DNA of 64,000 bases. Source: Candidatus Latescibacterota bacterium. GTDB lineage: Bacteria; Latescibacterota; UBA2968. The notes beneath the pieces are model-generated. The model searched no databases. It was not told the DNA's origin and worked only from the letters and a program-made list of their open reading frames with translations. Both the position numbers and the translations under genes were made by a program. Of the stretch, positions 4,020 to 43,252 are shown piece by piece; the first letter of the stretch is position 1, and each line of letters begins with the position of its first letter. The DNA lies in contig OZ220741.1 in the NCBI GenBank assembly GCA_965116885.1, positions 448,001 through 512,000 of the forward strand. The letters are read 5' to 3'.

Positions 4020-6878
4020 ATGCGTACATCGTGGATCATTTTTCTCTTACTATGGAGTACTTGCTCGGTCGTAGCTCAGGATCTCGGTAGCTTGGCTGGA
4101 AAAGTGGAAGATGAAACGGGAGAAGCATTATTCGCGGCCAATATCACAGTCAAAGGACCGGCTATTGAAGGCGTAAGAGGCGCAATCACCAACGACCAGG
4201 GGAACTATCGCATCGACCGCTTGCCACCGGGCATTTACGAAATCACCATCAGTTATATCGGATATGAAACCCTGGTGGCAACCGGCGTAGAAATCCGCGC
4301 TGGCGAAAGCATGACGCGAGATTTCAAACTGACCGCCGTAGCCCTCATCGGTCAACAAGTGGTCGTATCAGCATCGCGCAAACAGGAAAAAGCCCTGGAC
4401 GCACCCGCTTCAATAGCAACGATCGAAGCAGCCGAAATCAGAGATCGGGGGGTCTTGTCGCCAAGTGAGCATATCAAAGCCCTGCCCGGTGTTGACTTTT
4501 CCAAAACGGGCATCTCACAAAGCAACGTGGTGGTTCGCGGATTCAACAATGTATTTTCCGGTGCATTGCTCACACTTGTTGACAACCGCATTGCCCGCGT
4601 CCCTTCCCTGCGTTTCAATGCCTTTGATATGATCCCCGTTACCGGTGAAGACATTGAGCGCATTGAAGTGGTTTTGGGACCCGGATCCGCGCTTTACGGT
4701 CCCAACACCTCCAGTGGCGTGATGCACATTATCACCCGCTCCCCATTTGAATCAGAAGGCAATGCAATTTCCATATCTGGCGGCCAGCGCAGTGTGCGAA
4801 AATTATCACTGCGGCACGCCAGCAGCCTCAACGACAAAATTGGGATCAAAATTTCGGTTGGGCAAAGTTCAGCCCATGACTGGGAGTACATCGATCCCCT
4901 GGAAGTAGAAACGCGCGGTTTTAATCCACGCGATTACAACTCGAAAAAGACATTGGGAGAACTGAGACTCGATTTTCGACCAACAGATGACCTGACGATC
5001 ATAGGATCAACGGGTTATACAAAAACAAGCGGTATTGAATTGACGGGTTTGGGCGCGGGTCAGGCAAAAGACTGGACCTATAATTTTTATCAAGGTCGCC
5101 TGCTATATCGCGAGTGGTTCGCACAAATTTTCTACAACGCGAGTAATGCAGGTCAAACGAGAATGATCGCAGCCGACGACCCAATTGTGGATAATTCATA
5201 TTTGATGGTCATGCAATTGCAACACAATGCCAGCCTGGGAGAAAAACAACACTTTGCTTATGGTGCTGATGTACTGCTCACCCGACCCAAAACAGGGGGC
5301 ACCATAAATGGCATGCACGAAGACATTGATAACATCGATGAATACGGGATCTATTTGCAAAGTGAAACCAGCCTGAGCGATCAAATCGAGATGGTCTTGG
5401 CCGGACGCATCGACAAACACAGCCATATCGAAGACCCGTTTTTCTCACCCCGCGCGGCACTGGTCATCAAACCCAGACCGCTCAACACCCTGCGCTTGAC
5501 GTATAACCGCGCATTTAGCACGCCTTCGACCACCAACTTATTTTTAGACCGGATCGGCGTCCCCGACCCCTTTGGGTTCGGCGCATTGCAACCGTCATTG
5601 GGATTTAATCCAGCAATTGACGTTCGCGCACAGGGCACCGCCGGTACCGGGTTCACATTTCGCAGAGACGGCAATGGACTGCCCATGTATCGGACGCCCT
5701 TTGCGCCCATAGCGGGATTGTCAAAAGAACACTACTTCGCTCTGCACGATCCGCAAGGCACCAATTTGATGTGGGGCGCTGCCAGATCAATAATAATGGG
5801 TATCCTCCTGGCCGAATTGGAACCTCTCGCAACAGGGCTTTTCGTAGATCGGCTTGGACTACCACAAGATCAAGCGGCTGCGGTAGCCGCACAACTGGTT
5901 GCAGACTTCCCCGGGATTATCCCAGAACAACTGCCGGGTTTGCAAAATACGGCCGGGACACTGAATACGGCAACGGCGAGTTTTGATCCCGTGCCCAGCC
6001 TCGCCAATGCAGTGGCAGACATAAACAAAATCGAATCGACCATCTCAGAAACCTTTGAAGTGGGATACAAAGGCGTCATCAACAACAAACTCATTCTCGC
6101 AGCCGATGTCTATCTAAGCAGAAAAAGAAATTTCACCAGCCCGTTGCGGATTGTAACACCCAGTGTATTTCTCGCAGCCGGTCCCATGAGCGAAGCTCTG
6201 GAAAACGGAATTACCGAGAACTTGAAAGACCCGGCCAATGCAAGTCTCGCAATTGCCATCGGTCTTTTAGATCAACTCAACCTGCCGGATCTGGGCCTAA
6301 TTGGCAATGGCAATGGCACAGGCATAGATGAATTGACGCAGTTATTTGTATCCAACGCCGCGGGGATTCCCTTTGGCACCATGTCTGCCGAACAGGCATC
6401 GGACCCCACTGCGGTGATGGTCGCATATCGCAATTTTGGTCGCATAACGCTCTACGGTGCCGACCTATCTTTTGCGTATTATCCAAACGAAATATGGACT
6501 TTTACGGGCAATTACTCCTATGTCAGCGATGATTGGTTCCCCAATTTAGACAACATCGGCGACATAGCCCTCAATGCCCCCCGGCACAAATTTAACATCG
6601 GTATCGATTGCCAACTGCCCAATACACCGCTCACCATCCGCGGGAAATTGAGCTATCGCGATGGTTTTCCCATGCAATCGGGTGTATATGTCGGCGATGT
6701 AGATGCTTATACTGTTTTGGACCTGAGTACCTCATATCAGTTGCCTATTTCACATGATCGCTTCAAGATCACCTGGAATGTGGAAGCCAGCAACGTGTTA
6801 AACCAGGAATATCGATCATTTATCGGTGCGCCATTTATTGGACGCCTGGTCTTAACGGGCCTGAATATTCGATTCTAA
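4020..6878 (+). CDS. TonB-dependent receptor with N-terminal carboxypeptidase-regulatory-like domain (paralog 1)
   Basis: Signal peptide, VVVSASR TonB box, plug motif IERIEVVLGPGSALYG, C-terminal Phe. Confidence 0.92.
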   Translation: MRTSWIIFLLLWSTCSVVAQDLGSLAGKVEDETGEALFAANITVKGPAIEGVRGAITNDQGNYRIDRLPPGIYEITISYIGYETLVATGVEIRAGESMTRDFKLTAVALIGQQVVVSASRKQEKALDAPASIATIEAAEIRDRGVLSPSEHIKALPGVDFSKTGISQSNVVVRGFNNVFSGALLTLVDNRIARVPSLRFNAFDMIPVTGEDIERIEVVLGPGSALYGPNTSSGVMHIITRSPFESEGNAISISGGQRSVRKLSLRHASSLNDKIGIKISVGQSSAHDWEYIDPLEVETRGFNPRDYNSKKTLGELRLDFRPTDDLTIIGSTGYTKTSGIELTGLGAGQAKDWTYNFYQGRLLYREWFAQIFYNASNAGQTRMIAADDPIVDNSYLMVMQLQHNASLGEKQHFAYGADVLLTRPKTGGTINGMHEDIDNIDEYGIYLQSETSLSDQIEMVLAGRIDKHSHIEDPFFSPRAALVIKPRPLNTLRLTYNRAFSTPSTTNLFLDRIGVPDPFGFGALQPSLGFNPAIDVRAQGTAGTGFTFRRDGNGLPMYRTPFAPIAGLSKEHYFALHDPQGTNLMWGAARSIIMGILLAELEPLATGLFVDRLGLPQDQAAAVAAQLVADFPGIIPEQLPGLQNTAGTLNTATASFDPVPSLANAVADINKIESTISETFEVGYKGVINNKLILAADVYLSRKRNFTSPLRIVTPSVFLAAGPMSEALENGITENLKDPANASLAIAIGLLDQLNLPDLGLIGNGNGTGIDELTQLFVSNAAGIPFGTMSAEQASDPTAVMVAYRNFGRITLYGADLSFAYYPNEIWTFTGNYSYVSDDWFPNLDNIGDIALNAPRHKFNIGIDCQLPNTPLTIRGKLSYRDGFPMQSGVYVGDVDAYTVLDLSTSYQLPISHDRFKITWNVEASNVLNQEYRSFIGAPFIGRLVLTGLNIRF

Positions 6879-11116: not shown

Positions 11117-12802
11117 TCAAGCAGACACAATGCGGATATCAACCTCAAATGTACTGACGGGATAATTTATACCCCAGATTTCGAGAACGCCGGGATGAAC
11201 TTCGCCAATAAGCCCGTAAACGCGCTCGCCTACGCAGATCTCGCCACTGCGACCGGGTAAAAATGTGGGATGCTCAATCGGCGCAATAGTATATTCAAAG
11301 TCAAAATAATAAGATAATACCTCCAGATAGCTCTGAATACCAGACAAATTGGCCTCGTCACTCGCTTCGAGCGCGCAAAGATGAATATCTGTGCGCGTAC
11401 CGTAATCTTCTCCCGACGCGAGAACCCCCACCTCACCCACTTCAAAAATCCGATGCGGGTACAACGCGCGGCGGCTTGTCGCTTCGGTCTTCAACAAACC
11501 GGGCAGCAGTGCCCCCCGAATCGCGCTGTAATTTTCGGACATGGGATTTGAAATCGAGACAATCTTTGCATCTGGATTATTCATATCCACGGTCTGTTCT
11601 TTTTTAGAACAGAGAATCGGCAAAAAGACCTCTTGAAATCCGCTCCCAACCATGAGATTGCGAAATCGGTCTGCAAGATCCTCTTCTGGTGCGGCTTTGC
11701 CAATCGTAAAATCCCGGGGCATCTCGGGTTCAAAAGCCTCGTACCCCACACCGATCACAACATCTTCCACCACATCGACGGGATGCAAAATATCGTCGCG
11801 ATAAGGTGCTGGACGCACTTTAATAATCCGGTCTCGTACATCAACATCCCGATAACCCATCGCGTTGAGCGCGGTCTGAATCTGCCCTATCGAAATATGT
11901 GACCCAACCACTTTGTAAATCTCATCTATATCGACTTGCAATGGCTCGGTCATATCATACGGACACGTCACAACCTGTCCCCTCGGCGTGTGAAATGGAT
12001 ACCGCACCGTCACGGGATAAATGCGACCGCCCCGGTCAGCCATATTGACCGCCATAATCGCCATAGACAAAAGAATAGCGTCGAGTTCAGGACCCGTTGC
12101 TTCGCAAAACAAAAACGTATCCCCCACTTCAACGCGCCCCAGGCTCTGACTATTAATAACAGGAGGCATCGAAAGAACCTCGCCGCGCGAATCGCGGATC
12201 AGGGGAAACTTATCCTTCCCCTCGAGAAGATGTGCATACATCCTGCCCGTGGGATGATCGGACAAAATCTGTCGCAAAGACATCTCATCTTCAAACTCCA
12301 GAGGAACAAAAGCCGTCACATCGGGATCAACCGCATCGTATCGCACCGGATACACAATATCGGACGCATCGTAAATCCCAATCGCAACAACGCTGCGCCC
12401 GCGCCCATATCCATCGGCGAGTTTTTCCTGCGCCTCGATAAGCGCATCCAGTGCCGCATCATCAATCGCAATACCCTCACACGCAAAAGCGGCAATATAG
12501 GGACGGATATTTCGCAAGCCGGGATCGACAATAACCTCCCGTTCCTGCGATACGCCAGACGCATCAAAAAAAGAATAATCCGGCTTCACATTCTCCCGAT
12601 GGCTTTTGAGCAATCGCGCAAGCCCCTCTCCCGACCACAAATCGGGGCGGTTGGTATCCTTGAGTTGAATGCGAAGCGTATCGCCCTCTTCCGCATCGAT
12701 CTCAGCCTTCGCCGTTTCAAGCGCAACACTCAAACTCTCCGAAGAATAAACCTGCCCTGCGAGACGTTCAAAATCGGGTTTATTAACTGTAATCGTTGGC
12801 AT
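11117..12802 (-). CDS. pheT: Phenylalanine--tRNA ligase beta subunit, archaeal/eukaryal (short) type
   Basis: 561 aa beginning MPTITV, with TNRPDLWS, VLSMPPVINS and YRDDILHPVDVVEDV. No B2 OB-fold and no B8 FDX anticodon-binding domain. Confidence 0.93.
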   Translation of the reverse strand: MPTITVNKPDFERLAGQVYSSESLSVALETAKAEIDAEEGDTLRIQLKDTNRPDLWSGEGLARLLKSHRENVKPDYSFFDASGVSQEREVIVDPGLRNIRPYIAAFACEGIAIDDAALDALIEAQEKLADGYGRGRSVVAIGIYDASDIVYPVRYDAVDPDVTAFVPLEFEDEMSLRQILSDHPTGRMYAHLLEGKDKFPLIRDSRGEVLSMPPVINSQSLGRVEVGDTFLFCEATGPELDAILLSMAIMAVNMADRGGRIYPVTVRYPFHTPRGQVVTCPYDMTEPLQVDIDEIYKVVGSHISIGQIQTALNAMGYRDVDVRDRIIKVRPAPYRDDILHPVDVVEDVVIGVGYEAFEPEMPRDFTIGKAAPEEDLADRFRNLMVGSGFQEVFLPILCSKKEQTVDMNNPDAKIVSISNPMSENYSAIRGALLPGLLKTEATSRRALYPHRIFEVGEVGVLASGEDYGTRTDIHLCALEASDEANLSGIQSYLEVLSYYFDFEYTIAPIEHPTFLPGRSGEICVGERVYGLIGEVHPGVLEIWGINYPVSTFEVDIRIVSA

Positions 12803-12822: not shown

Positions 12823-14361
12823 CTACCGCGTATTCCTGACCAGATCCAAATCCGTACTGAACAAATCGCGAATATCGTTAATACCCAGCGCGACCATCGC
12901 CATTCTATCAACCCCCAGACCCCAGGCAATAACTGGCACATCCACACCCAGAGGTCGTGTAAGTTCAGGCCGAAAAAGACCCGCGCCACCAAGTTCGATC
13001 CATCCCAGAACGGGATGCTTCGCCTGAAGTTCGACCGAAGGCTCGGTAAAAGGAAAATAATCGGGCACATAGCGCACATCTTCGGCCTGCGCGATCTCAA
13101 GGGCGAACAGCTTGAGCAAACCGAGCAAACTGCGAAAATTTATCTCCTCGCCCAAAACAATACCCTCAGCCTGAAAAAAATCTGCCGCGTGCGTGGCATC
13201 GACATCATCCGGACGAAAACAACGCGCAAGAGCGAAATACTTACCCGGGATATTCGGTTCTGAAGCGAGCGCACGCGCCGAAAGCGCAGTGCCCTGACTC
13301 CGCAAAATAAGGCGGCGCGACTGTTCGGGATTAAATTCATATCGCCACCCGCGCGACCCCGTATCGCCCCCATTTTGATGCGCCTCAGCCACCCGGGAAA
13401 AATGGGGTTCCTCTGCCTCTCGGGATTGCGTTGGCTCCGTAACATAATACGCATCGTGAATATTGCGCGCCGCGTGAAACTGCGGCATAAAAAGGGCATC
13501 CATATTCCAGAACTCGGTCTCCACCAGAGAACCTTTCAACTCTTCAAAACCAAGCGCCATCAACCGGCGCCGCACATTATCGAGATACGCCCGATAGGGA
13601 TGGTGCTTCCCAATAAGCACGCGCGGCGGCTTAATCGACAAATCATATCGGCGAAAAGATGCGCCCTGCCATGTACCTTTCTGAATCATTTCCGGCGTAA
13701 GCCGAGAAACTTCATCACCCGTAAGATTGGCTTTGACAACCTCCACAAGCACGCGCCGCCCTTCTTCCGTAAGACAATAAACCCGCTCTGTGCGCTCGTC
13801 CAAACGAACAGGCGCCCTGCCCCCGCCGCGCTTGCGGGCATTGGCTTCAATATATTGGACAACATCACCGGGAAAATTATCAATCTCAATTCCCGTATCG
13901 GAAAATTTGTCAAACAATTCTGGCATAAGTCGATCAATAAAAAAAGAAGCCCGATCTGCATCGACAATAACAACAGCCCCCTTATCCAGATCGATAATCC
14001 CATCCTTTTTCAAACCGCCAAAAGCACTGCCCCAGGCACCTCTGTCAAAACGCTCGTCGGCTTGCAAATCTTGAATCCCAACGCGCTCTGCACTCGCCCG
14101 GGTCAAAAGTGCCGTCTCTGGCGTCGCGCCCTTTGTTGCAAAATCCCGTCCCACTTCCGTAAGCGAAACTGTTGCGCGCGTATTTTCCCCGGTAACTTCG
14201 AGCAACTGCTTGGAAATCAGCCACTCAACCGCGCGTCTAACCTGTCCTTCGCCAATGCCTGCCCCCTTTTGAAGTTGTGCATCGGACTGCTCGGCACTGG
14301 CATTATTCTCATATACACGCAAAATGCGAATTTCGAGCGCATGTAAAGAAGCGAGATCCAT
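12823..14361 (-). CDS. pheS: Phenylalanine--tRNA ligase alpha subunit, archaeal/eukaryal (long) type
   Basis: About 512 aa with a long N-terminal extension, LTPEMIQKGTW, GKHHPY, FWNMDALFMPQFHAAR, DATH, YFPFTEPS, WIELGGAGLFRPE. Confidence 0.94.
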   Translation of the reverse strand: MDLASLHALEIRILRVYENNASAEQSDAQLQKGAGIGEGQVRRAVEWLISKQLLEVTGENTRATVSLTEVGRDFATKGATPETALLTRASAERVGIQDLQADERFDRGAWGSAFGGLKKDGIIDLDKGAVVIVDADRASFFIDRLMPELFDKFSDTGIEIDNFPGDVVQYIEANARKRGGGRAPVRLDERTERVYCLTEEGRRVLVEVVKANLTGDEVSRLTPEMIQKGTWQGASFRRYDLSIKPPRVLIGKHHPYRAYLDNVRRRLMALGFEELKGSLVETEFWNMDALFMPQFHAARNIHDAYYVTEPTQSREAEEPHFSRVAEAHQNGGDTGSRGWRYEFNPEQSRRLILRSQGTALSARALASEPNIPGKYFALARCFRPDDVDATHAADFFQAEGIVLGEEINFRSLLGLLKLFALEIAQAEDVRYVPDYFPFTEPSVELQAKHPVLGWIELGGAGLFRPELTRPLGVDVPVIAWGLGVDRMAMVALGINDIRDLFSTDLDLVRNTR

Positions 14362-14405
14362 CAAGAGAAACTCCTTATGTAGCGATCAACACTCTACTGA
14401 CTGTC

Positions 14406-14531: not shown

Positions 14532-14803
14532 AAAAAAGCCCCTTCGTCATCATATAGGGACGAAAGAGCTTCTCCGCGGTACCACCCTATTTGCGCTAAA
14601 AAGCACCACTCAGCGGATGGCCATCACCATCCTGTCCATTATCGGTGGACCCACCGGCTCGGCTTAATAGGAAACTGTCTCTCCATTCGGCTTTGCAGCT
14701 CGGGAGGGAACTTCGCCTGTGCATCCTGCAGATGTGCTTTCAGCCCAGGACACATCCTCTCTATGCAGTTGGGAACAGGCTACTTTTCTCCGTCATAGCT
14801 TTA
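14532..14803 (-). ncRNA. T-box riboswitch (tRNA-Phe specific, transcription antitermination)
   Basis: Stem I contains a UGA/GA K-turn, AGUA, the AGAGA and GCUGAAA distal motifs, and specifier GAAG-UUC (14710-14708). T-box AAUAGGGUGGUACCGCG pairs with CGUCCCU. Terminator AGCUCUUUCGUC..GACGAAGGGGCU-UUUUU. Confidence 0.93.
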
Positions 14804-14810
14804 AAGGCAA

Positions 14811-14855: not shown

Positions 14856-17108
14856 CTATCCGCCAACCGATTTTCCAAAGGCACTCACAAACAGAAGAAA
14901 ATCGGGAAAGTCAACAGTACCGTTCCTATCGATATCATATTGGGCCTCGGACGATCCAAATGCCCCTACAAACAGGAGAAAATCAGCAAACTCGATTACG
15001 CCATTGCCGTCAAAATCCGATTTGGCTTCCACAGAAAGCGGCTGGACAACGCCAGAAATCGTCAGCATAAACCTTGCGCGATCCGGATCATTACTCAAAA
15101 TATTGATACTACCCGAAAACTCGCCCTCCATGGGTTTGGGAAACGTAATCGTAATCGTCGCCGAACTATCCGGAGATAGTGTAAACATAGAAGGCTCAAA
15201 CGTCAAACCCGACACATCGCTCTCAATACCCGTAATCTCCAGAGGCGCAGTACCCGTATTCGTAATCGTAAAAGTCTGCTGAGCTGTCTTCTCAGCATCA
15301 ATACTCCCAAAATCAATCGCCGGTTCACCCACAACAAGCACAGGCGCAGGTGCCGCCTGCACAATCACAGAAACGGATAAAGTCCGCGTCGCACGATCAG
15401 GATCATTACTCGAAATCGTGATATTACCCGAAAATGTGCCTTCCACAGAACTCGGAAATGTCACCGTCACCGTGCGCGAACCGCCAGGTTCCAATGTGAA
15501 CATCGTAGTATCAAACGTCAAACCCGACACATCGCTCTCAATACCCGTTATCTCCAGCGGTGCTGTCCCCGTGTTCTCAATCGCAATCGTCTGTTGACCT
15601 GTTTGACCTGCCTCAATAGCACCGAAATTAACAGCCGTTTGCTGAACCGCAATCACCGGCACAGGTGCCGCCTGCACAATCACAGAAATAGATAATATCT
15701 GCGTTGCACGATCCGGATCATTACTCGAAATCGTGATATTCCCTGAAAATGTGCCTTCCACAGAACTCGGAAACGTAATTGTCACCGTCTGTGAACCATT
15801 GGGTGCCAGGGTGAACATCGTAGTATCAAACGTCAAACCCGACACATCGCTCTCAATACCCGTAATCTCCAGCGGTGCAGTACCCGTGTTCATAATCGCA
15901 ATCGTCCGTTGACCTGTTTGGCCTGCCTCAATAGTGCCAAAATCAACTGCCGTTTGCTGAACCGCAATCACCGGCGCAGGTGGCGGCTGGACAATCACAG
16001 ACACGGATAAAGTCCGCGTTGCGCGATCAGGATCATTACTCGAAATCGTGATATTACCCGAAAACGTGCCCTCCACAGAACTCGGAAACGTCACCGTCAC
16101 CGTCTGTGAACCATTGGGAGCCAGTGTAAATGTAGAAGGCGTAAACGTCAAACCCGACACATTACTCTGAATACCCGTAATCTCCAGCGGTGCAGTACCT
16201 GTATTCCTGATCGTAATCGTCTGTTGACCTGTCTGCCCTGCCTCAATAGTACCGAAATTAACTGCCGTTTGCTGCACAGCAATCGCTGGTGCAGGGGGCG
16301 GTTGAACAATCACAGAAACGGATAATGTCTGTGTTGCACGATCCGGATCATTACTCGAAATCGTGATATTACCCGAAAACGTGCCCTCCACAGAACTCGG
16401 AAATGTCACCGTCACCGTCTGAGAACCGTTGGGCGCCAGTGTGAACATTGTAGTATCAAACGTCAAACCCGACACATCGCCCTCACCCTTAATCCCCGTT
16501 ATCTCCAAATCCGCTGTACCCGTGTTTGTAATCGTAATCGTTTGTTCACCTGTTTGACCGGCGTCAATAGTCCCGAAATCAATAGCTGTTTGCTGCACAG
16601 AGATCGCTGGCACAGGCGCGGGTATTTGTGCCAACAACTCATCAACCACCTTTGCCGCGTTACTACGTGCAGTGGAATTCGTCAAACTGCTTGATGCAAA
16701 AAAGCGCACAATTCCATCGGGACCAACGACAATGAGATCCTCAAGGCCGAATGGGCTACCTGCGTTTCGGAGCACAGGAAAAGTGACACTTGCGGCAGTG
16801 CGAAAACTATTAACTTGACCCGGATTACCATTCCAAACATCGAGACCCAACATGGCAAAATTATCGGAATCTTTATACTTACCCCAAATTTCGCTTTCGA
16901 GAGACGGACCCGCCTCTCTACAGCGCGTTCAACTCCACCCAATGACCGCAAGCACGAGTACTTTGCCTTCATAGTCAGAGGCCTTATGTGTAGTGCCGCT
17001 GGGATCTGGGAAAGAAAAATTAACAATCGGTTGCCCAACCGTTTGTGCAGAAGCAGCCCCAACGAGCAAAAGTAGAATCATCGGGATGGACAATAGATAT
17101 TTACGCAT
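14856..17108 (-). CDS. Predicted secreted selenoprotein (750 aa): signal peptide, redoxin/thioredoxin-fold domain with UxxC (Sec60), five Ig-like ASH/choice-of-anchor-D repeats, paired EF-hand/dockerin-like tail
   Basis: Track ORFs 16929..17183 and 14856..16853 share a frame and are separated only by TGA at 16931-16929. Read-through gives ..YEGKVLVLAVIGWS-U-TRCREAGPSLESEIWGKYKDSDNFAMLGLDVW..VTFPVL..LIVVGPDGIVRF. A SECIS hairpin follows the TGA. Confidence 0.88.
15045..16620 (-). repeat. Five intragenic tandem repeats, 315-bp (105-aa) period
   Basis: acaatcacag recurs at 15361, 15676, 15991 and 16306. Each unit contains FG.I.AGQTG..TITI.NTGTAPLEITGI..SNDPDRA. Confidence 0.92.
16892..16925 (-). 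promoter_or_regulatory. Bacterial SECIS element
   Basis: UGA-ACG-CGCU-GUA-GAGAGGCG-GGUC-CGUCUCUC-GAA-AGCG: an 8-bp upper stem starting 10 nt after the UGA with a GGUC apical loop, plus a 4-bp lower stem. Confidence 0.85.
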
Positions 17109-17142
17109 GGCATTTATCCTTATATATTGGTGAAAGAAAGAC

Positions 17143-17168
17143 GGGACGGCACGGGGGCCGTCCCCTAC
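17143..17168. repeat. GTAG-type REP palindrome
   Basis: gggacggcacgggggccgtcccctac. Confidence 0.8.
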
Positions 17169-17263
17169 AACAACATGCTGCAATGACGGCTCTCCTGTCC
17201 TAAAGGTATCAACGCTTCAATCTAACAGAAGTTTCTCCACGGGTCAACCACAAGGAGCGAGCG

Positions 17264-18241: not shown

Positions 18242-19471
18242 ATGAGCAAACGCGATGCAGAGCAAGTTCAAAAAGTATTGTCTGGCGACCAGGCTGCTTA
18301 CGAACCGCTGGTTGAGGCGTATCAAGGGCGCATCTTTGCCTTTGTAGCTGGTCGAATCCGCAACTTTTCCGCAACAGAAGACATCGTACAAAATGCGTTT
18401 GTGGAGGCATACATGCACCTCAAGTCTCTAAAATCGCCCGAAAAATTCTCAGGTTGGCTGCGGGGAATTGCACTCAATCTATCGAACAAATGGATTCAAC
18501 AAAAGCGCCCCGCCGTCTCAATAGACGAAACATCACAAGATGTGACACCTGAAATATCAGAATTTCCACTGCCGGACTTACCCGACGAAGCACTGGAAAA
18601 AACCGAAACAGAAGAAGTCGTTATAGCCGTCGTTGATGCATTACCAGACATTTATCGGGAATCAGTACTGCTCCACTACATGGAAGGCATGACCTATCCC
18701 GAAATCGCAGCCTTTCTCGACATCCCCGAAAGCACAGTAACCGGACGCCTTCAGGTCGCGCGCAATCGCTTGCGCGACGAATTGATGCCGCTGGTAGAAG
18801 ACACGCTCCGCGAAAAACGTCCAACACCTCAACTGACGCGCAAAATAATGGCCGCATTACCCCCGCTATTGTACGCAGTACCAACACAGGCGAGTCTGCT
18901 CGCAAAACTGAAAGGAACGGGCATGATTAAAATAACGGGTATCATCGGCGCAGGAATCGCGGGAACGGGATTGTATTTTGGTGGGATTTCGGCAGTATGG
19001 AATTTAGGACAAGAAAACACTGAGCCATCCCAGGTGCCCCAAATACAGCTCGAATTGGAAAACCTCGCTCAAAATGAGCAATCCGTTCCTGAGAAAACTA
19101 ACGAAACAGAGGGCGTAGAATCTTCGCCACAAGAAGTCCAATCCGATTCCAATACAAGTGGCGAAACACAAACAGAAAAACTGGACTTCAAAATGGAAAC
19201 TTCGCCACAAGATTCACTGGTAAAAATAGTGTACTGGATACCAGAGACGGTCTATTCAGACTCCGTCTTTATAGAACTCGAATGCTACAATAATATGGGC
19301 ATGATAGTAGCCAGACCGATCAATAAAACACACGCACCGGGTTCTTATACGACGTTCTTATCTAAACAAGGACTTCCCGACGGAATATACTTCGTGCAAT
19401 TAGAAGCAAATCAATCCAAAAAAAATGCCCAGATACGGAAATTAAATCTAATTTGGACAGACAGAAAGTGA
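18242..19471 (+). CDS. ECF sigma-70 factor with C-terminal extension (TM-like segment, acidic linker, T9SS-CTD/FlgD-like Ig domain)
   Basis: Sigma2 EDIVQNAFVEAY..FSGWLRGIA.N and sigma4 YRESVLLHYMEGMTYPEIAAFLDIPESTVTGRL, followed by about 220 extra aa. Confidence 0.88.
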   Translation: MSKRDAEQVQKVLSGDQAAYEPLVEAYQGRIFAFVAGRIRNFSATEDIVQNAFVEAYMHLKSLKSPEKFSGWLRGIALNLSNKWIQQKRPAVSIDETSQDVTPEISEFPLPDLPDEALEKTETEEVVIAVVDALPDIYRESVLLHYMEGMTYPEIAAFLDIPESTVTGRLQVARNRLRDELMPLVEDTLREKRPTPQLTRKIMAALPPLLYAVPTQASLLAKLKGTGMIKITGIIGAGIAGTGLYFGGISAVWNLGQENTEPSQVPQIQLELENLAQNEQSVPEKTNETEGVESSPQEVQSDSNTSGETQTEKLDFKMETSPQDSLVKIVYWIPETVYSDSVFIELECYNNMGMIVARPINKTHAPGSYTTFLSKQGLPDGIYFVQLEANQSKKNAQIRKLNLIWTDRK

Positions 19472-19478: not shown

Positions 19479-20762
19479 ATGTATTTCAACAAGTGCAAAC
19501 TGGTAGCAAGTCTGGCAATATGTCTAATTGCATATTCTCTGTGTTTTGCACAACAGCCAACCCATTCCAAAGAAGAAATGAAGCGATTTCGCCAATTTGC
19601 GTCCGGATACCTCCCCAAGACCCCAGATCAGTATTGGGAGGGCATTCTGGGACTGGAGCAACTGCTTGCGGATTATCCCAATACCTTTTTGAAAGGCGAC
19701 ATCTCCATCACCCTGTTGGGTTATTACCAACACGTCACCGATGATCCACACCTGTTGATTGAACTCTCTGAAAAAATGCTCGCATTGCGAAGGCACACCA
19801 ATGGTGCTTATGAAACGGCTGCTCGGGCACTCGTAGATAAGAAAGTTCGGTCTGATAAAACGCTTCTATATGCACAAAACGCATTAAAAGAAGCATTGCA
19901 GAACCAGGAAAAATGGGAAAATTACGGTAAAAGAGAATTAATCTGCCGGGATCTATTGGCGCGTGCTCATCAACTCCTTGGACAACACGACCGTGCTGTC
20001 CAAGAAATAAAAACCGCGCTACGCGGTTGGCAAACCCGAGAAGATTTAGGCGACCTGGAACTGGCATCTCGGCAGGCGTCAGTAGATAGGGCAAAGACCC
20101 ACTTGCTTCGAATCTATATCGACCAAAAAGCATGGACAGAGGCTTATGAACTCGCCTCAGAACTATTGCTAACCTCAGTCATACGCCAGGATATAGCAGA
20201 ACTGTGGAGCCAAGCTTATGCTGGCAAACACGGCTCAGGTGCGGGGATGAGCAAAGCATACGCTGCCTTAAAATCCGAGCGGAAGGAAAAAATCATCCAA
20301 AGCGTCGAAAAAGAACGCATTTTACGCTCTGCACCGGCCTTTGAAGTCCAGAAGTTAGACGGTGAAAAAATCACGTCAGCAGACTTAAAAGGCAAAGCTG
20401 TGGTACTAACATTTTGGGCGGGATGGTGCAGCCCGTGCATTGAAGAACTGCCCTATCTCCAAAACCTCAACGCGCAATTTCTCAAGCAAAATGTCGAATT
20501 TTTAGCTGTAAATATCGACCAGGACAGCTCAATGCGCCGGGATATGGTCGCCAGCTTTCGGTACCAGAGCGCACCGCTCTTAACCTTTGCATTGGGCGAT
20601 CTGGAAATGCGAAAAGCGTTTGGCTCCGACGAGATTCCCTATACCTGCATCATCGACCAGAACGGACAAATTCGGTATGAGCGCAAGGGATTAGGTGCAG
20701 ATTTCAGCGTGGCAATGGCGCATCAATTGCAATGGGTCATCGGAATGAACGAGGCACCGTAA
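19479..20762 (+). CDS. Secreted TPR-like + TlpA-family thiol-disulfide oxidoreductase
   Basis: Signal peptide, helical repeats, LKGKAVVLTFWAGWCSPC..ELP, IPYTCIIDQNG. Confidence 0.88.
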   Translation: MYFNKCKLVASLAICLIAYSLCFAQQPTHSKEEMKRFRQFASGYLPKTPDQYWEGILGLEQLLADYPNTFLKGDISITLLGYYQHVTDDPHLLIELSEKMLALRRHTNGAYETAARALVDKKVRSDKTLLYAQNALKEALQNQEKWENYGKRELICRDLLARAHQLLGQHDRAVQEIKTALRGWQTREDLGDLELASRQASVDRAKTHLLRIYIDQKAWTEAYELASELLLTSVIRQDIAELWSQAYAGKHGSGAGMSKAYAALKSERKEKIIQSVEKERILRSAPAFEVQKLDGEKITSADLKGKAVVLTFWAGWCSPCIEELPYLQNLNAQFLKQNVEFLAVNIDQDSSMRRDMVASFRYQSAPLLTFALGDLEMRKAFGSDEIPYTCIIDQNGQIRYERKGLGADFSVAMAHQLQWVIGMNEAP

Positions 20763-25099: not shown

Positions 25100-25543
25100 T
25101 CAGGAGACTGCACGCGCCTCCGCGTCAATCGCGCCAAAGAGTTGCCGCGTCATCAAACGGGCTGCACTGGCGTGCATGCGTTGTCCCACAGCAGCGATTG
25201 GCCCGCCGATTTGCACATCGCCCTCAAACGAAATCCGCGTATTCTCGCCCTCAGGGGCAAGTTCCACAACGCCCTGCCCCTTGACAAACCCGGTCGTGCC
25301 CTTGATATCGACCACCATCGTATAGCGCTCGGGCGGTTGAATATCTGAAAGCGTGACACTACCCGTGTATTTGCCGCGAACGGGACCAATCCCTGCGGAA
25401 ACAGCCATATCGTAAACCCCATCTTCCCTGTGTTCCAGCTTGTCGCAGCCGGGCATACAACGAGCGAGCACCTCGGGATCGATAAGCAACTCAAAAGCGC
25501 GCTCAACCGGCGCGCCAATCGTGTGTGTACCAGAAAGTTTCAA
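25100..25543 (-). CDS. coxG: CoxG/SRPBCC family protein
   Basis: TTG start with AGGAG RBS. LIDPEVLARCMPGC, GIGPVRGKY.G, GGPIAAVGQR. Confidence 0.88.
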   Translation of the reverse strand: MKLSGTHTIGAPVERAFELLIDPEVLARCMPGCDKLEHREDGVYDMAVSAGIGPVRGKYTGSVTLSDIQPPERYTMVVDIKGTTGFVKGQGVVELAPEGENTRISFEGDVQIGGPIAAVGQRMHASAARLMTRQLFGAIDAEARAVS

Positions 25544-25553
25544 AACGTCTCCT

Positions 25554-25598
25554 AAAAAAATACAGCCCCCTTCCCCGAAAGAGAAGAGGGCTGTAAAA
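25554..25598 (-). terminator. Terminator-like hairpin between coxM and coxG
   Basis: TACAGCCCTCTTC..GAAGGGGGCTGTA followed by T7 on the minus strand. Confidence 0.7.
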
Positions 25599-26456
25599 TC
25601 AAGCTGCGCGTTCAATTGCCCGGCTCAATGCCCGTTGGGCAAACACGCATGCCAAATGGGCGCGGTAATCGCCAGAAGCGTGGTGATCTTCCTGAAATTC
25701 CTCTACGCCATCAGCCGCATGGGCCGCCGCATCGGCAACAGCGTCAATACCCTGACCCACAAGCGCGTCTTCGACCGCCTGTGCGCGGTACGCCGCAGGC
25801 GCAACACCTGTAACACCTACAGCCACAGAAGCGCAGTTGCCCGCATCATCCAGCGTCACCTGAGCCGCAACGCCTGCAAGGGCAAAACCGGACGCAGATT
25901 GTCGCATCTTGACATACGCACCACCCGAATTCTCGGGCGGAGTGGCAATGCGAATACCTGTAAGGACCTCGTCGGGTTGCAAATCTGTAATAAAGAGATC
26001 CACAAAAAAATCAGACGCAGCAACCGCGCGTTCACCATTGGGACCGGCAATATCCAATTGTGCATCGAGGGCGAGCATAGTCGCCGGCCAATCCGCAGCC
26101 GGGTCGGCATGGGCAATACTCCCGCCCACAGTGCCCCGATTCCGCACCTGCGCATCGCCAATCTCTGCTGCAGTCTCGGGCAAAAGGGAACATTTTGAAG
26201 GCAACAGGCGATGGCTTTCCACAGCATAATGCGTGGCCAGAGCGCCAATGGTAATGGTCTCATTGCCCGCCGTCACTCTTTTTAAGCCGGCAACGCCACC
26301 CAGATCAATAACGACCGAAGGCGCAGCAAGACGCAATTTCATAGACGGAATCAGACTGTGACCGCCCGCCAGTACTTTGGCATCGTCGCCGAACTCCTGC
26401 ACCAGACGCATCGCGCTTCTCAGAGTTTTGGGTGCGTGGTAATCAAAGGGAGTCAT
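25599..26456 (-). CDS. coxM: Molybdenum hydroxylase FAD subunit (CoxM/CutM)
   Basis: KVLAGGHSLIP.MKLRLA, QVRNRGTVGGSIAHADPAAD. Confidence 0.9.
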   Translation of the reverse strand: MTPFDYHAPKTLRSAMRLVQEFGDDAKVLAGGHSLIPSMKLRLAAPSVVIDLGGVAGLKRVTAGNETITIGALATHYAVESHRLLPSKCSLLPETAAEIGDAQVRNRGTVGGSIAHADPAADWPATMLALDAQLDIAGPNGERAVAASDFFVDLFITDLQPDEVLTGIRIATPPENSGGAYVKMRQSASGFALAGVAAQVTLDDAGNCASVAVGVTGVAPAAYRAQAVEDALVGQGIDAVADAAAHAADGVEEFQEDHHASGDYRAHLACVFAQRALSRAIERAA

Positions 26457-26459
26457 TGT

Positions 26460-28793
26460 TCAGATCTCCTGCATGAGTTTCCAGAGTTTTTCAGGACGCA
26501 AAGGCAGATCGATATGTCGCACGTCAAAAGGTTTTAGCGCGTCAATCACCGCATTGGCTATCGCGGGCGTAGAACCAATCGTACCCGCTTCGCCCACACC
26601 TTTGACACCCATCGGATTAACGGGTGAAGGCGTAACCGTATTTGCCAATTCAAAGCGCGGGAAATTGTGCGCTTTTGGCAAGGCATAATCCATAAATGAA
26701 CCGGTGATCATCTGCCCGCTTTCATCGTAAATAGCTTCCTCGTAAAGGGCCTGTCCCACACCCTGTGCAATACCGCCGTGTACCTGGCCCTCAACAATCA
26801 ACGGATTGATAATATTCCCGCAATCGTCAACGGCGATATAACGCTGTATCTCGACCTCACCCGTATCGGCATCCACCTCAACCACGGCGATGTGCGTACC
26901 GAAGGGATAGGTAAAGTTTGGCGGCTCAAAAAAGTGCGATTCGGCGAGACCGGGTTCTGTACCCTCGGGAAGTTCCACACCCACATGGGCCACCATCGCG
27001 ATCTCACCCAAAGTGAGACCCGACTCAGGCGCGCCCTGAACGCAGTATTTGCCGTCTTCAATCACAATATCCTGCGGATTGCTCTCCAGCAGATGCGCGG
27101 CAATATTGATCACTTTGTCTTTCACTTTACCCATCGCGTGAACCATCGCCGTACCACCCACAGCCGTCGCGCGACTGCCAAATGTACCAATACCGTATTG
27201 CACAGTATCCGTATCGCCGTGGATAATGCGAATATCGTCGATATCAACGCCCAGACCATCGGCAATAAGCTGGGCAAACGTGGTCTCCTGTCCCTGTCCG
27301 TGAGGCGATACACCCGTGAGCACAGTAACCTTACCCGTGGGATCTACGCGCACAGTGCTGCTTTCCCATCCACCAGCGGGCATCGCAGCAGAAGGACCCA
27401 TCCCACAAATCTCCACATAAGTGGAAAATCCAATACCGAGGTATCGTCCCTCTTCGCGCAAATTGGCCTGCTGCTCGCGCAAAGCCTCGTAATCGGCGAT
27501 CTTGAGCGCCTTATCGAGCGCGGCCGTATAGTCGCCACTGTCATAAGCCAGAGCAGTCCCCGTTTCAAAGGGAAAAGCATCTTTGCCGATAAAGTTTTTG
27601 CGCCGAACCTCCAGAGGATCGAGATCCAGATCGTGCGCCACCACATCGATCATGCGCTCGATGAGATACGTGGCCTCGGGACGTCCCGCACCCCGATAAG
27701 CATCCGTCGCCATCTTATTCGTAAAAGCGGCTGTGAGATTCATCTGCACATTTTTAAATGTGTAAGAACCGCACAACATCAATCCCGTAAGCGTGGGAAT
27801 GGCCGGCGTGAGCAACTGATAATAAGCCCCCACATCCGCCGTAACCGTGTATTTGAGACCGAGGATCGTACCGTCGTCTTTCACCGCAAGCTCGACATCT
27901 CCGGTCTGATCGCGTCCGTGAATCGTGTGCACAAAATTTTCACGCCGCCCCTCAATCCACTTCACGGGCTGCCCGAGATATTTTGCCATATGCCCGAGCA
28001 GGGCTTCTTCGGCGTACACATTGAGCTTGCAACCAAAGCCCCCGCCCACTTCGGGCGCAATAACGCGCACATGATTTTCGGCCATACCCAGCATAACGGA
28101 TATTTGCGTGCGCAACAGATGGGGAATTTGCGTAGAGGACCACAAGTTGAGCTGGTCTTTGCCGGGCAGATATTGGGCAACCACCCCCCGCGTCTCCATT
28201 GGATTGGGAACCAGACGTTGATGGTCAATCCGCTGACTGACGACATGATCGGCTTCGGCAAAAGCCGCATCAATATCGCCCCCGGCAATGCTCCAGGTAA
28301 AAGCCATATTATCGTCCCAATCTTCGTGAATAACAGGCGCGTCATCGGCAAAAGCAGCCTCAGCCGAATTGATGGCATCGAGAGGTTCGTAATCAACCTC
28401 AATCAAATCCAGTGCATCCTGAGCAATGTACGCATCGGTCGCTGCAACAGCGGCGACAGGCTCGCCAACAAAACGCACCTTTCCAGTTGCAAGCACGGGA
28501 TGATGGGGCACCTTAATGCCCGGAAATCCCTCCGGATCTGTAGCCGCACAGGGAATTCCACCAATGACATCTTTGACATCATCGCCAGTGACCACGGATT
28601 TCACTCCGGACAAATTTTGCGCCGCATCGGTATTAATACCATTGATGCGCGCATGGGCATAAGGGCTTCGCAAAATCGCGACATGCAACAAATTGGGCAG
28701 CTTAATGTCATCGACATAATGTGCAAGGCCCTGAATCAATCGAGGGTCTTCTCGGCGCTTAATACGGGCGCCAACAGATTTGCTAACAGGCAT
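26460..28793 (-). CDS. coxL: Molybdenum hydroxylase large subunit, form II CoxL-like
   Basis: REDPRLIQG, VGGGFGCK, active-site loop AYRGAGRPE, HGQGQET, KGVGEAG. Confidence 0.88.
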   Translation of the reverse strand: MPVSKSVGARIKRREDPRLIQGLAHYVDDIKLPNLLHVAILRSPYAHARINGINTDAAQNLSGVKSVVTGDDVKDVIGGIPCAATDPEGFPGIKVPHHPVLATGKVRFVGEPVAAVAATDAYIAQDALDLIEVDYEPLDAINSAEAAFADDAPVIHEDWDDNMAFTWSIAGGDIDAAFAEADHVVSQRIDHQRLVPNPMETRGVVAQYLPGKDQLNLWSSTQIPHLLRTQISVMLGMAENHVRVIAPEVGGGFGCKLNVYAEEALLGHMAKYLGQPVKWIEGRRENFVHTIHGRDQTGDVELAVKDDGTILGLKYTVTADVGAYYQLLTPAIPTLTGLMLCGSYTFKNVQMNLTAAFTNKMATDAYRGAGRPEATYLIERMIDVVAHDLDLDPLEVRRKNFIGKDAFPFETGTALAYDSGDYTAALDKALKIADYEALREQQANLREEGRYLGIGFSTYVEICGMGPSAAMPAGGWESSTVRVDPTGKVTVLTGVSPHGQGQETTFAQLIADGLGVDIDDIRIIHGDTDTVQYGIGTFGSRATAVGGTAMVHAMGKVKDKVINIAAHLLESNPQDIVIEDGKYCVQGAPESGLTLGEIAMVAHVGVELPEGTEPGLAESHFFEPPNFTYPFGTHIAVVEVDADTGEVEIQRYIAVDDCGNIINPLIVEGQVHGGIAQGVGQALYEEAIYDESGQMITGSFMDYALPKAHNFPRFELANTVTPSPVNPMGVKGVGEAGTIGSTPAIANAVIDALKPFDVRHIDLPLRPEKLWKLMQEI

Positions 28794-28803
28794 GGGGCGC
28801 CTC

Positions 28804-29268
28804 CTATGTGGTCATTTTTTTCGATGCGTACTGAACCGCATCGACAATATGTTGGTACCCTGTACAGCGGCACAGATTGCCTTCTATACCGCGACGAATA
28901 TCGGCTTCACTGGGTTTGGGATTGCGTTCTAAAAGCTGGTGCGCGGCAATAATCATGCCCGGGGTGCAAAAACCGCACTGCAATCCGTGACACTCCCAGA
29001 AGCCCTCCTGAATAGGGTGCAATTCACCATTTTGGGCCAGGCCCTCAATGGTAGTAATTTCAGCACCATCGGCTTGCACTGCCAAAACCGTACACGATTT
29101 GACAGCATCTCCATTGAGCATCACACTGCACGCGCCACAAAGGCTGGTCTCACAGCCCACGTGCGTGCCAGTAAGCCCGACGACATCGCGCAAAAAATGC
29201 ACGAGCAACATCCGCGGTTCGACATCGTAACTTTGATGCTCCCCGTTCACAGTGACTTCAATTTTCAC
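28804..29268 (-). CDS. coxS: [2Fe-2S] small subunit (CoxS/CutS)
   Basis: [30 protein letters not shown]. Confidence 0.92.
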
Positions 29269-30602: not shown

Positions 30603-31211
30603 ATGAAAACACTTTACTACGTCGCCGACCCCATGTGTTCCTGGTGCTGGGGATTTCAACCAGTATTGGAAAAAGTAAAAGAAGCCGTACCCGAAGAATT
30701 GGCACCCGTATATATCATGGGTGGATTGGCGCGAGACACCGATGACCCCATGCCCGATGTGATGCGGGCGCATATCCAGCGCGCCTGGCGCGAAGTCGCA
30801 GCCATAACAGGTGCGAGTTTCAACTGGGACTTTTGGGAAAAATGCAAACCGAGGCGATGCACATATCCATCTTGCAGGGCATTTTATGCGGCTCAAAATC
30901 AGGGAGCGGGAACTGAGATGTTCGAGGCGACTCAACGCGCCTATTACCGGGAAGCCCGCAATCCATCAGATACAGAGATCCTCGTCGCATTGGCGGGTGA
31001 AATCGGGTTAGACACGCAGCGATTTGCTCAAGATCTATCCTCACCCGAAACAGAACAGCAGATGCAGGATGGATTTAACATCAGGCGATCGATGAATGCC
31101 AATCAATTTCCAAGTCTCGTCGTAAGAAACAATGCGTCTGTAACCTTCATCACCAGAGGGTATAACAACGCGGAAAACGTATTGGCCTACCTGCACGCCG
31201 CACTAAAATAG
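30603..31211 (+). CDS. DsbA-family protein
   Basis: LYYVADPMCSWCWGF and the FPSLV cis-Pro motif. Confidence 0.9.
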   Translation: MKTLYYVADPMCSWCWGFQPVLEKVKEAVPEELAPVYIMGGLARDTDDPMPDVMRAHIQRAWREVAAITGASFNWDFWEKCKPRRCTYPSCRAFYAAQNQGAGTEMFEATQRAYYREARNPSDTEILVALAGEIGLDTQRFAQDLSSPETEQQMQDGFNIRRSMNANQFPSLVVRNNASVTFITRGYNNAENVLAYLHAALK

Positions 31212-41824: not shown

Positions 41825-43252
41825 CTATTTACGAACTTGCAACATATCCATAAATTCCCACACGGGCATAGTATCCAAAGCCGAACTTTCAAACACAGCC
41901 AAAATATCTTGTACCTGCTGCGCCTCAAACCGCGTTGTCATATTTTTCACAAACTTTTCCACCAGCAAGGGCGCGGCCTCCTCCCGCCTTCTTCGATGCC
42001 CGATGGGATATTCCACCGTCACGGCCTCTGTCGCCGATCCATCTTTGAAAAACACCTGCACGGTATTGGCAATGGACCGCTTGTCAGGATTGTGGTAATC
42101 CCGCGTAAACCGCGCATTTTCCGTCACCACCATCTTTTTTCTCAACAGATCGATGCGCGCGTCCTCCGCGCGCTCCTCTTCATAGTCATCTGCAGTCAAA
42201 TCGCCAAAAATCAGCCCTATCGCCACCATATATTGCAAGCAGTGATCTCGATCTGCGGGATTGTACAGCGGACCGGTCTTATCGATAATTTTTACGGCAG
42301 CTTCGTGTGTCTCAATCACCACCCGCTCCACTGCCTCCAAACGCGGCGCCACCTCATTGTGCAACGCAAACGCGGCTTCTACCGCTGTCTGTGCGTGAAA
42401 TTCAGCGGGAAAAGACACCTTGAACAACACATTTTCCATCACATAAGAACCGTACACGCGCTGAAACCGAAACCGATCGCCATTCCACAAGCGGTCGTAA
42501 AAACCCCACACAGGCGCTGACAGAGCCGTTGGATATCCCATCTCGCCGCGCCTTGTCTGCAATGCCAAAAATACACCACGCGCTGTCGCATCTCCCGCCG
42601 CCCAACTCTTGCGCGAACCCGTATTGGGCGCATGCCGATAGGTTCGCAAAGGACCCAAATCGCACCATACCTGCGACAATGCATTGACAACCTGCGCCTC
42701 ATCACATCCCAACAGCCCAGCAGAAACCGCCGCACTCGCCAACTTCACCAAAATCACATGATCCAGTCCCCGGGCATTAAAACTGTTTTCCAATGCCATC
42801 ACACCCTGAACCTCATGCGCTTTGATCATCGCCACGAGCACATCCCGCATCACCAGTGTATCTCTCCCCTGTGCCCGTTGCGTGCGCGACATCCAGTCCG
42901 CCACCCCGAGAATTGCACCCAGATTGTCCGAAGGATGGCCCCACTCCGCCGCCAACCACGTATCGTTAAAATCCAGCCACCGCACCAGTGTCCCAATATT
43001 AAACGCGGCAGTCACAGGATCGAGTTCGCAATCCGTACCCGGCACCCGCGCACCGTGCGGCACAATTGTTCCCGGCACCACGGGACCGAGCATCTTCGCA
43101 CACTCAGAAAACCGCAATGCCAACACCGCACACCCCAAACTATCCATCAGACACAATCGAGCTGTCTGAAAAGCCTCCTCGGAATTCACCTCACAATCCA
43201 GCACGTACTGTGCGATAGTCACCAGTTCTCTATCCGGTGTTCTATCATCCAT
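41825..43252 (-). CDS. prpD: 2-methylcitrate dehydratase
   Basis: [52 protein letters not shown]. Confidence 0.95.

Follow-up and report, generated by a model that had tools for sequence, protein, structure and literature searches.

Our analysis of a 64-kb window (the whole 64,000-nt stretch of contig OZ220741.1 considered here) from an uncultured Candidatus Latescibacterota bacterium reveals that positions 14856–17108 of the minus strand very probably constitute one gene for an exported thiol-disulfide redox enzyme with selenocysteine (Sec, U) at its active site. Translation of this interval with TGA read as U yields 750 residues and a single terminal stop, and U60, in the context GKVLVLAVIGWS-U-TR-C, is the sole codon that differs from translation table 11. 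Under table 11, the TGA terminates an 84-amino-acid (aa) open reading frame (ORF; 16929..17183), and a second ORF, of 665 aa, runs from Met86 (14856..16853); the read-through translation bears out an earlier note on this DNA, which had taken the two ORFs to be one frame broken by a single TGA. The N-terminus, MRKYLLSIPMILLLLVGAASA-QT, resembles a secretory (Sec-type) signal peptide as judged by eye, as that note had also read it, and is followed by a redoxin head, a stalk of immunoglobulin (Ig)-like repeats, and a predicted dockerin tail (Table 1). The same N-terminus is present at three related loci (L001–L003), and, in an AlphaFold model of the head, residues 1–20 have low predicted local distance difference test scores (pLDDT, 60–67).

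The evidence for Sec is, above all, comparative. We collected the DNA around relatives of the protein, one genome per species, and obtained eight related loci (L001–L008), all labelled Candidatus Latescibacterota, whose heads are 43–64% identical to the window head. Translation through the break places a TGA at the identical column in all eight loci, which makes nine of nine with the window, and the residue pair between U and C varies over the nine copies (TR, QT, PT, PS, PT, GT, ST, PF, and PI). An exhaustive HMMER search with the head, in which the TGA was read as Cys, retrieved 1006 homologs at E ≤ 1e-3. The best 150 of the 1006 were inspected and provide 154 aligned stretches with letters at both motif columns: 152 read C-x-x-C, one reads C..Y, and one reads A..C, such that Cys occupies column 60 in 153 of the 154. 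Across a 62-row alignment, G57 and C60 alone are invariant. Passages of PMC9312934 and PMC1794560 present TGA in one clade and Cys elsewhere as the standard comparative signature of a selenoprotein, and the Cys/TGA alternation among homologs to which the earlier note had pointed is indeed found. We consider it highly probable, judging by these alignments, that the TGA encodes Sec.

The predicted fold of the head runs across the TGA. The Pfam AhpC-TSA family matches residues 24–115, spanning the TGA, with 30.8 bits for the whole protein and 35.0 bits for the head alone (cut-off 26). The AlphaFold model of the head, computed from the 62-row alignment (pLDDT 92.8; predicted template modelling score, pTM, 0.85), shows a continuous thioredoxin fold with pLDDT 98 on either side of the break and with residue 60 located directly before a helix comprising residues 61–78. 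The homolog alignment and the model thus agree with the earlier note, which had placed the TGA at the first Cys of a redoxin CxxC, and the Pfam match and the continuity of the predicted structure uphold its claim that redoxin sequence continues on both sides. The best Foldseek match of the head is 2ls5, a protein disulfide isomerase (PDI)-like protein of Bacteroides thetaiotaomicron (template modelling score, TM, 0.76), and ResA structures match within the top ten with TM 0.62–0.69. Like ResA and TlpA, the predicted structure combines a thioredoxin fold, an N-terminal extension, and a redox motif where helix 1 begins. TlpA (NF047696) and ResA (NF002854) are likewise the NCBIfam families nearest to the head; because it scores 24.4 bits versus a cut-off of 170 for ResA and 24.5 bits versus a cut-off of 230 for TlpA, it belongs to neither family.

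An alternative function for a selenoprotein head of this type would be that of a peroxidase, similar to a peroxiredoxin or a glutathione peroxidase (GPx), acting on peroxides outside the cytoplasm. AhpC/TSA is the best Pfam family of the head, Bcp/PrxQ and GPx appear among its fold matches from rank 20 on, and Sec is typical of peroxidases. We nevertheless regard this function as unlikely: the U-x-x-C motif stands where helix 1 begins, just as it does in thioredoxin and ResA, and the top ten structural matches comprise a PDI-like protein, ResA, and thioredoxin-like proteins, in line with the nearest NCBIfam families. In addition, peroxiredoxins have a T/S-x-x-C peroxidatic motif, with Thr or Ser three residues before the Cys, whereas the consensus of the present family is FGYxCPxC, with an invariant Gly (G57) at position −3 relative to Sec; Gly in place of Thr/Ser therefore speaks against a peroxiredoxin mechanism. 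Since the peroxiredoxin signature is absent and the fold is similar to ResA and PDI, disulfide reduction or exchange is favoured, with Sec60 as the nucleophile and Cys63 as the resolving residue, and, from the motif and the predicted model, the head probably performs thiol-disulfide oxidoreductase chemistry.

The RNA downstream of the TGA can form a hairpin of the type expected of a selenocysteine insertion sequence (SECIS). In the window, the hairpin comprises a 4-bp lower stem and an 8-bp upper stem that starts 10 nt past the UGA and is capped by a GGUC apical loop. The minimum-energy fold has −19.8 kcal/mol (z = −2.13), and 2 of 200 shuffled sequences fold as well. The upper hairpin is the RNAalifold consensus of all nine sequences, the apical loop is GGUC (GGGC in L006), and 80.6% of the cells of the 8-pair structure are standard pairs, versus 37–62% when the partners are slid. 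In the E. coli fdhF element, the upper stem-loop is located ~11 nt past the UGA, and SelB binding involves contacts to a G and a U of the apical loop; we take the layout of the window element to be that of the fdhF element. Because the hairpin overlaps the codons of conserved residues (A-A-G-P-S-L-E), we examined synonymous sites: at codons +5 to +10, the majority third base is present in 45 of 48 cells, versus 187 of 266 cells in the other conserved four- and sixfold-degenerate codons of the head (Fisher one-sided p = 2e-4, in a test that ignores shared ancestry). Since neither RNAalifold nor the pair count shows covariation, we claim no structural proof of a SECIS; conservation and pairing are the two lines of support, and, in our reading, a SECIS-like element is apparently present and conserved, not proven by covariation.

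Several observations weigh against Sec at this codon. For the hairpin, compensatory double changes are found at none of 8 pairs by the pair count and none of 6 by RNAalifold over the nine sequences; columns 17 and 30 are unpaired in seven of nine sequences, with an A-U pair there in the window alone; the free minimum-energy fold differs from the consensus hairpin in eight of nine sequences; the z-score of the window fold is modest; and the codons upstream of the TGA are fairly conserved too (65 of 85 third bases). For the decoding machinery, selA, selB, selD, and tRNA-Sec are all absent from the 64-kb window and from the eight loci. For the gene itself, the ratio of nonsynonymous to synonymous substitution rates (dN/dS) is 0.5–1.2 among the closest genomes, which fits diversifying and equally relaxed selection, and the L007 copy is interrupted between signal peptide and head by an IS4/5 transposase of an insertion sequence (IS).

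The absence of Sec machinery from the window and loci and the absence of covariation in the hairpin would also suit read-through of the TGA as an amino acid other than Sec, such as Trp, Cys, or Gly, whether through near-cognate or suppressor decoding or through an altered code. Stop usage argues otherwise. Among 31 confident genes of the window, used as a control set, TGA ends 9, TAA 12, and TAG 10; the TGA-ended genes include pheT, ruvB, ruvC, prpB, and uvrA, and NCBIfam matches reach near their ends. Because TGA terminates 9 of these 31 genes, there is no general sense reading of TGA in this organism. Moreover, the codon is at the catalytic Cys position of the homologs, in the classic Sec/Cys pattern, and the conserved hairpin is located where a SelB-binding element would be. 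Non-Sec read-through is, in sum, very improbable. When the window was screened for further frames interrupted by TGA (up to two TGAs per frame bounded by TAA or TAG), no other candidate had a redox motif flanking the TGA, although this screen can miss cases, the present gene itself not being listed, probably owing to extra TGAs in its 5′ leader. Our literature searches, within the passages that they returned, turned up no paper reporting Sec use in Latescibacterota.

A pseudogene or a sequencing error, in which a Cys codon (TGC or TGT) was mutated to or misread as TGA and the whole protein is no longer made, would accommodate the two ORFs seen by gene callers, the dN/dS values among the closest relatives, and the dispensability of the gene in at least one genome. 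Specifically, in L007 the signal-peptide piece (4858–5100) is followed by the transposase (5163–5963; DDE_Tnp_1, 109.5 bits), the head resumes at ~6000, and the TGA is at 6067; the gene is cut by the IS element and is therefore dispensable there and can be lost. This explanation is, however, largely refuted by the presence of the TGA in nine of nine copies from separate assemblies despite head identities of 43–64%. In seven of eight loci, the read-through frames are intact over 324–1408 codons, with no further stop or frameshift, and each of the seven encodes a signal peptide, a UxxC head, 1–11 Ig repeats, and the same tail. Between L005 and L006, dN/dS is 0.08 upstream and 0.13 downstream of the TGA, purifying values on both sides, and both parts are therefore translated and constrained. 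Synonymous sites are conserved in the hairpin region as well. We regard loss of the protein by mutation or misreading as barely credible, and, on the sequence evidence, the observations are beyond what a one-off nonsense mutation, a sequencing error, or two independent genes can account for.

Two genes, one for a 59-residue exported peptide terminated by the TGA and another for a 665-residue Ig/dockerin protein with its start at Met86, are what public sequence sets would suggest, since they hold just these pieces (59-aa N-terminal fragments P0061, P0160, and P0161, and fragments that start with MLGLDV), but this arrangement is exceedingly improbable: the thioredoxin fold crosses the break with pLDDT 98 on both sides and the Pfam match to residues 24–115 spans it, a protein starting at Met86 would be without signal peptide, strand 1, active site, and helix 1, the full-length Cys homologs are single chains, and Met86 is merely the first ATG past the stop. 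The fragments have the same origin elsewhere. In a protein search with the head, all eight matches, the window's own fragment included, cover the second half only (48%), and all seven relatives fetched begin at the equivalent MLGLDV, from which it follows that gene callers have cut them at the upstream stop. Every public copy seen is split, as the earlier note had foreseen for automated annotation of this gene, and the proposed selenium site has been missed. Close relatives of the Ig-plus-tail part (P0164, P0222, P0233, and P0263) are labelled Gemmatimonadota or Gemmatimonadetes by NCBI; the P0164 tail is 100% identical to that of the window protein, and eight of eight genome loci are labelled Latescibacterota. 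The Gemmatimonadota labels could reflect a problem in the taxonomic labelling of metagenome-assembled genomes (MAGs) or a wider distribution.

Table 1. Features of the proposed selenoprotein gene, in window coordinates
Feature	Position	Strand	Details and basis
Whole coding sequence	14856..17108	−	750 codons plus TAG stop (14856–14858); ATG at 17106–17108; read-through translation, ORF table
Signal peptide (predicted), residues 1–21, MRKYLLSIPMILLLLVGAASA	17046..17108	−	By eye; cleavage probably after ASA
Redoxin head, residues 22–165	16614..17045	−	Predicted thioredoxin fold of ResA/TlpA/AhpC-TSA type; Pfam, AlphaFold, Foldseek
In-frame TGA, residue 60, proposed Sec	16929..16931	−	Position 1 of U-T-R-C; read-through translation, ortholog column, distant Cys homologs
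Cys63 codon, resolving Cys of UxxC	16920..16922	−	Column nearly invariant in 62-row alignment; Cys in 153/154 homolog stretches
SECIS-like hairpin	16892..16925	−	Lower stem 16922–16925/16892–16895; upper 8-bp stem 16911–16918/16899–16906; loop GGUC 16907–16910
Met86 codon	16851..16853	−	False start of the 665-aa fragment in gene calling; ORF table, MLGLDV starts of relatives
Stalk, five tandem Ig-like repeats	15057..16613	−	~105 residues each (choice-of-anchor D/DUF1573/HYDIN type); Pfam, NCBIfam, Tandem Repeats Finder
Dockerin tail (predicted), residues 685–750	14859..15056	−	Two Ca-loop-plus-helix segments; nine-tail profile, AlphaFold, Foldseek

Downstream of the head, Pfam, NCBIfam, and Tandem Repeats Finder agree on the five Ig repeats that the earlier note had counted. 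Specifically, the Pfam HYDIN/DUF1573 families match in five stretches (PF07610, 223.4 bits versus a cut-off of 26.1), NCBIfam choice_anch_D (NF012200) matches in five stretches with 305.7 bits (cut-off 45), and Tandem Repeats Finder reports a period of 315 nt, 4.8 copies, and 82% matches at 15074–16600. Repeat number ranges from 1 (L005, 324 aa) to ~11 (L001, 1408 aa), with protein fragments of up to 1817 aa, and Ig copy number also varies among proteins P0005–P0007, P0165, and P0177. Near-identical 315-nt repeats are spots where assemblies may collapse or expand.

The 66-residue tail consists of two D-x-[DN]-x-[DN]-G...DF segments, as seen in the tail alignment. A profile of nine tails matches the dockerin 2y3n_B with E = 3.6e-12 over both segments. 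The AlphaFold model of the tail has pLDDT 92.1, and its first 11 Foldseek matches are all dockerins (best TM 0.74, root-mean-square deviation 1.9 Å, 29% identity). The window tail matches EF-hand_1 with 31.4 bits (cut-off 25.4), and the profile and fold matches sharpen the EF-hand/dockerin-like designation of the earlier note: the tail is a dockerin as predicted by both profile and fold. An EF-hand calcium sensor was considered and rejected, as calmodulins match one loop only (query 12–29) with TM ~0.3.

A search with the tails retrieved 1553 longer proteins at E ≤ 1e-5 among 8000 candidates scored. Most of the 120 matches listed combine this tail with Ig repeats; where NCBI names them, the names are 'choice-of-anchor D domain-containing protein', 'DUF1573 domain-containing protein', or 'hypothetical protein', as is also the case for fragments of the present gene. 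Several relatives of ~480 residues also bear cohesin modules. In P0190, a signal peptide is combined with two cohesin-like repeats, an Ig repeat, and a tail that shares 74% identity with that of the window protein (Pfam Cohesin, 37.3 bits versus 24.1; Dockerin_1 in the tail, 27.1 versus 22.9). Searching with the cohesin region of P0190 gives 450 relatives at E ≤ 1e-5, and fusion to leucine-rich repeats (LRRs) is frequent among them. Among the matches listed, cohesin-module proteins are apparently also present on the chromosomes of L003 and L004 and on five further contigs that bear split copies of the present gene. More broadly, cohesin-like modules form a large family with fusions to Ig repeats, dockerin tails, CARDB, and LRRs (P0190, P0189, P0192, P0193, P0200, P0232, P0241, and P0242). 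From these domain matches, there appears to be a non-cellulosomal cohesin–dockerin network in this lineage, and proteins of the P0190 type, bearing both cohesins and a dockerin, could chain. In the literature on Latescibacteria and dockerins or cellulosomes, what surfaced was a single second-hand passage on cellulosome-affiliated enzymes.

Docking of the selenoprotein to a cohesin is a reasoned reading of these sequences that we would give an even chance. Counting against it, the window tail is below the cut-offs of Pfam Dockerin_1 (17.8 versus 22.9) and NCBIfam dockerin_GC; no cohesin protein from the window's own chromosome is present among the 120 of 450 matches listed; Pfam Cohesin has no match in the 14 ORFs scanned, and no NCBIfam cohesin family matches in 45; and there is no evident outer-membrane route in an organism that has LptE and TonB receptors.

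The closest Cys homologs of the head are ~260-residue proteins with a sorting tail (Por_Secre_tail) of the type IX secretion system (T9SS), 27–42% identical to it. One Cys form, P0017 (435 aa), shares the plan of the selenoprotein: a head, two Ig repeats, and a tail that is dockerin-like. The eight syntenic Sec copies form a clade in a maximum-likelihood tree (support 95/81), nested in a wider clade (support 99/92) to which the Sec paralog L008 and two Cys forms, P0017 and P0026, also belong and whose inner order the tree does not resolve. As drawn, the tree requires a minimum of two Cys/Sec changes; a single Cys-to-Sec change in the family is possible. L008 is in the same MAG as L006, and P0197, which starts with MLGLDTWDG, is apparently in the genome of L002; judging from these two sequences, the family is multi-copy in some genomes.

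The gene is flanked by a PhyH-like gene (six of eight loci) and by a T-box/pheS/pheT unit (pheS in seven of eight loci). In the comparison of the window with L001–L003 and L007, the head is 51–64% identical where the flanking proteins (pheS, pheT, PhyH-like, and others) are 89–98% identical; the head thus evolves far faster than its neighbours, under either diversifying or relaxed selection. In the window, the T-box leader (14553–14805, minus strand; Rfam, 106.5 bits versus 93) starts ~50 nt past the selenoprotein stop codon and precedes pheS (12823–14364, minus strand) and pheT (11117–12802, minus strand), which encode phenylalanyl-tRNA synthetase subunits of archaeal type (pheT_arch, 484 bits; PRK04172, 540 bits). 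The promoter of the leader must be inside or just after the selenoprotein gene, or both must be co-transcribed. For the hairpin, Rfam has no family, either at gathering scores on the whole window or at E up to 10 on 16780–17010.

Elsewhere in the window, an extracytoplasmic function (ECF) sigma factor with a 220-residue C-terminal extension (18242–19471, plus strand) is followed by a 427-residue exported protein (19479–20762, plus strand) that has a canonical TlpA/ResA domain (FWAGWCSPC) besides a helical N-domain. L001, L002, and L007 share this pair, which is absent from the other loci, and in L002 and L007 there are three tandem matches to the last 100 residues of the sigma extension. The window also contains CoxG with a three-subunit molybdenum hydroxylase cluster (25100–29268, minus strand), prpB-prpC-prpD (41825–45316, minus strand), a complete rRNA operon with tRNA-Ile and tRNA-Ala (47555–52734, minus strand), and a DsbA-like thioredoxin (30603–31211, plus strand). 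The best NCBIfam matches of the molybdenum hydroxylase cluster are glyceraldehyde dehydrogenase and aerobic carbon monoxide dehydrogenase families, just under their cut-offs, and its matches to selenium-dependent hydroxylase models are weak only.

Selenoproteins with the domain and motif of the head have been in print since 2006–2008: passages of PMC1794560, PMC2398784, and PMC9312934 describe pfam00578 UxxC selenoproteins ('Prx-like thiol:disulfide oxidoreductase' and 'Prx-like 1') and a 'thiol:disulfide interchange protein' and call Cys-to-Sec conversions in thiol oxidoreductases common, and the class is listed in Table 2 of PMC2398784 and Table 1 of PMC1794560. In the definition given in a passage of PMC9312934, the class combines pfam00578 with UxxC; because the head has both (AhpC-TSA, 35.0 bits versus 26; U60-T-R-C63), it belongs to this known class. 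It shares with the selenoproteins described by Zhang and Gladyshev the Pfam domain, the UxxC motif with Sec first, and the existence of Cys homologs. As far as the descriptions in those passages go, the members described are small thioredoxin-fold proteins and come mostly from Deltaproteobacteria and marine reads, whereas the present head is joined to 1–11 Ig repeats and a dockerin in Latescibacterota. A passage of the Global Ocean Sampling paper (PMC2398784) mentions Prx-like selenoproteins fused to unknown domains, fusions that may bear on the newness of the present one.

Four other systems invite comparison. ResA of Bacillus subtilis and TlpA share with the head the fold, a CxxC-type site at the start of helix 1, and export, but have a membrane anchor where the present protein has a stalk and a dockerin; the motif of the head, G-[WY]-[SN]-U-x-x-C, also differs from the W-C-x-x-C of the neighbouring TlpA-like gene, with Sec in place of Cys. 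The T9SS redoxins with FGYxCPxC, the closest Cys homologs of the head, have the same active-site context and are likewise exported and tethered; they differ in having Cys rather than Sec, a T9SS sorting domain rather than a dockerin, and mostly no Ig stalk, and we are aware of no function tested for them. Dockerins of cellulosomal and non-cellulosomal type (such as 2y3n chain B) have the same duplicated calcium-loop-plus-helix segment as the tail, but here the cargo would be a redox enzyme rather than a glycoside hydrolase, with a putative cohesin partner. Finally, the OS_HP2 family (seleno)protein model (NF041425) matches the Ig repeats with 138.6 bits summed over five stretches (cut-off 100), but the matched repeats have no TGA, the proposed Sec being in the redoxin head, and the ~28 bits per repeat would suit a shared fold family rather than membership. 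The ocean selenoprotein family OS_HP2, as described, seems to share the Ig fold of the present stalk. Judging from the sequences compared, what is new here would be the lineage, the architecture with Ig stalk and dockerin, the link to a cohesin–dockerin system, and the split state of every public copy seen.

The explanation that we favour, and consider likely, is that this locus is one gene whose product is a modular, exported selenoprotein in an uncultured Candidatus Latescibacterota bacterium. Going by the comparative evidence, the ribosome would meet the UGA at codon 60, the hairpin 10 nt downstream would recruit SelB with Sec-tRNA(Sec), and Sec would be inserted in place of termination. 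The Sec-type signal peptide would carry the protein across the inner membrane. There, Sec60, at the N-terminus of helix 1, would act as the attacking nucleophile, and Cys63 would resolve the intermediate into a selenenylsulfide, with Sec conferring high reactivity and resistance to irreversible over-oxidation. After the head, the five Ig-like repeats (1–11 among relatives) would form a rigid stalk, and calcium-dependent docking of the C-terminal dockerin to cohesin modules would hold the protein in place. Most likely, the protein would be tethered and act as a thiol-disulfide oxidoreductase, reducing or reshuffling disulfides in exported proteins or in proteins of the environment; its substrate, its reductant, and its final location are what we infer from these comparisons. 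The Sec form may have arisen from a Cys form within a family otherwise displayed via T9SS sorting tails. A further-reaching and doubtful reading is that cohesin–dockerin display in Latescibacterota carries, besides binding modules (LRR, Ig), a scaffold-docked extracellular Sec enzyme, held at a distance tuned by 1–11 Ig repeats, with a head under diversifying selection from host, prey, or phage proteins.

If the TGA encodes Sec, a clade of large exported proteins has been mis-annotated publicly as pairs of fragments, and the gene provides a clean test case for selenoprotein-aware gene calling in MAGs. The divergence of the head between conserved flanks would mark a candidate interaction surface under selection. 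Sec decoding would be added to Candidatus Latescibacterota, and a Sec redox centre could evidently be built into a long, modular, tethered protein, not only into a small soluble redoxin. Selenium use would, in addition, be linked to a non-cellulosomal cohesin–dockerin system. Should the scaffold-docked reading be true, the protein would be the first selenoprotein known as cohesin–dockerin cargo and would provide the first evidence of Sec decoding in the phylum.

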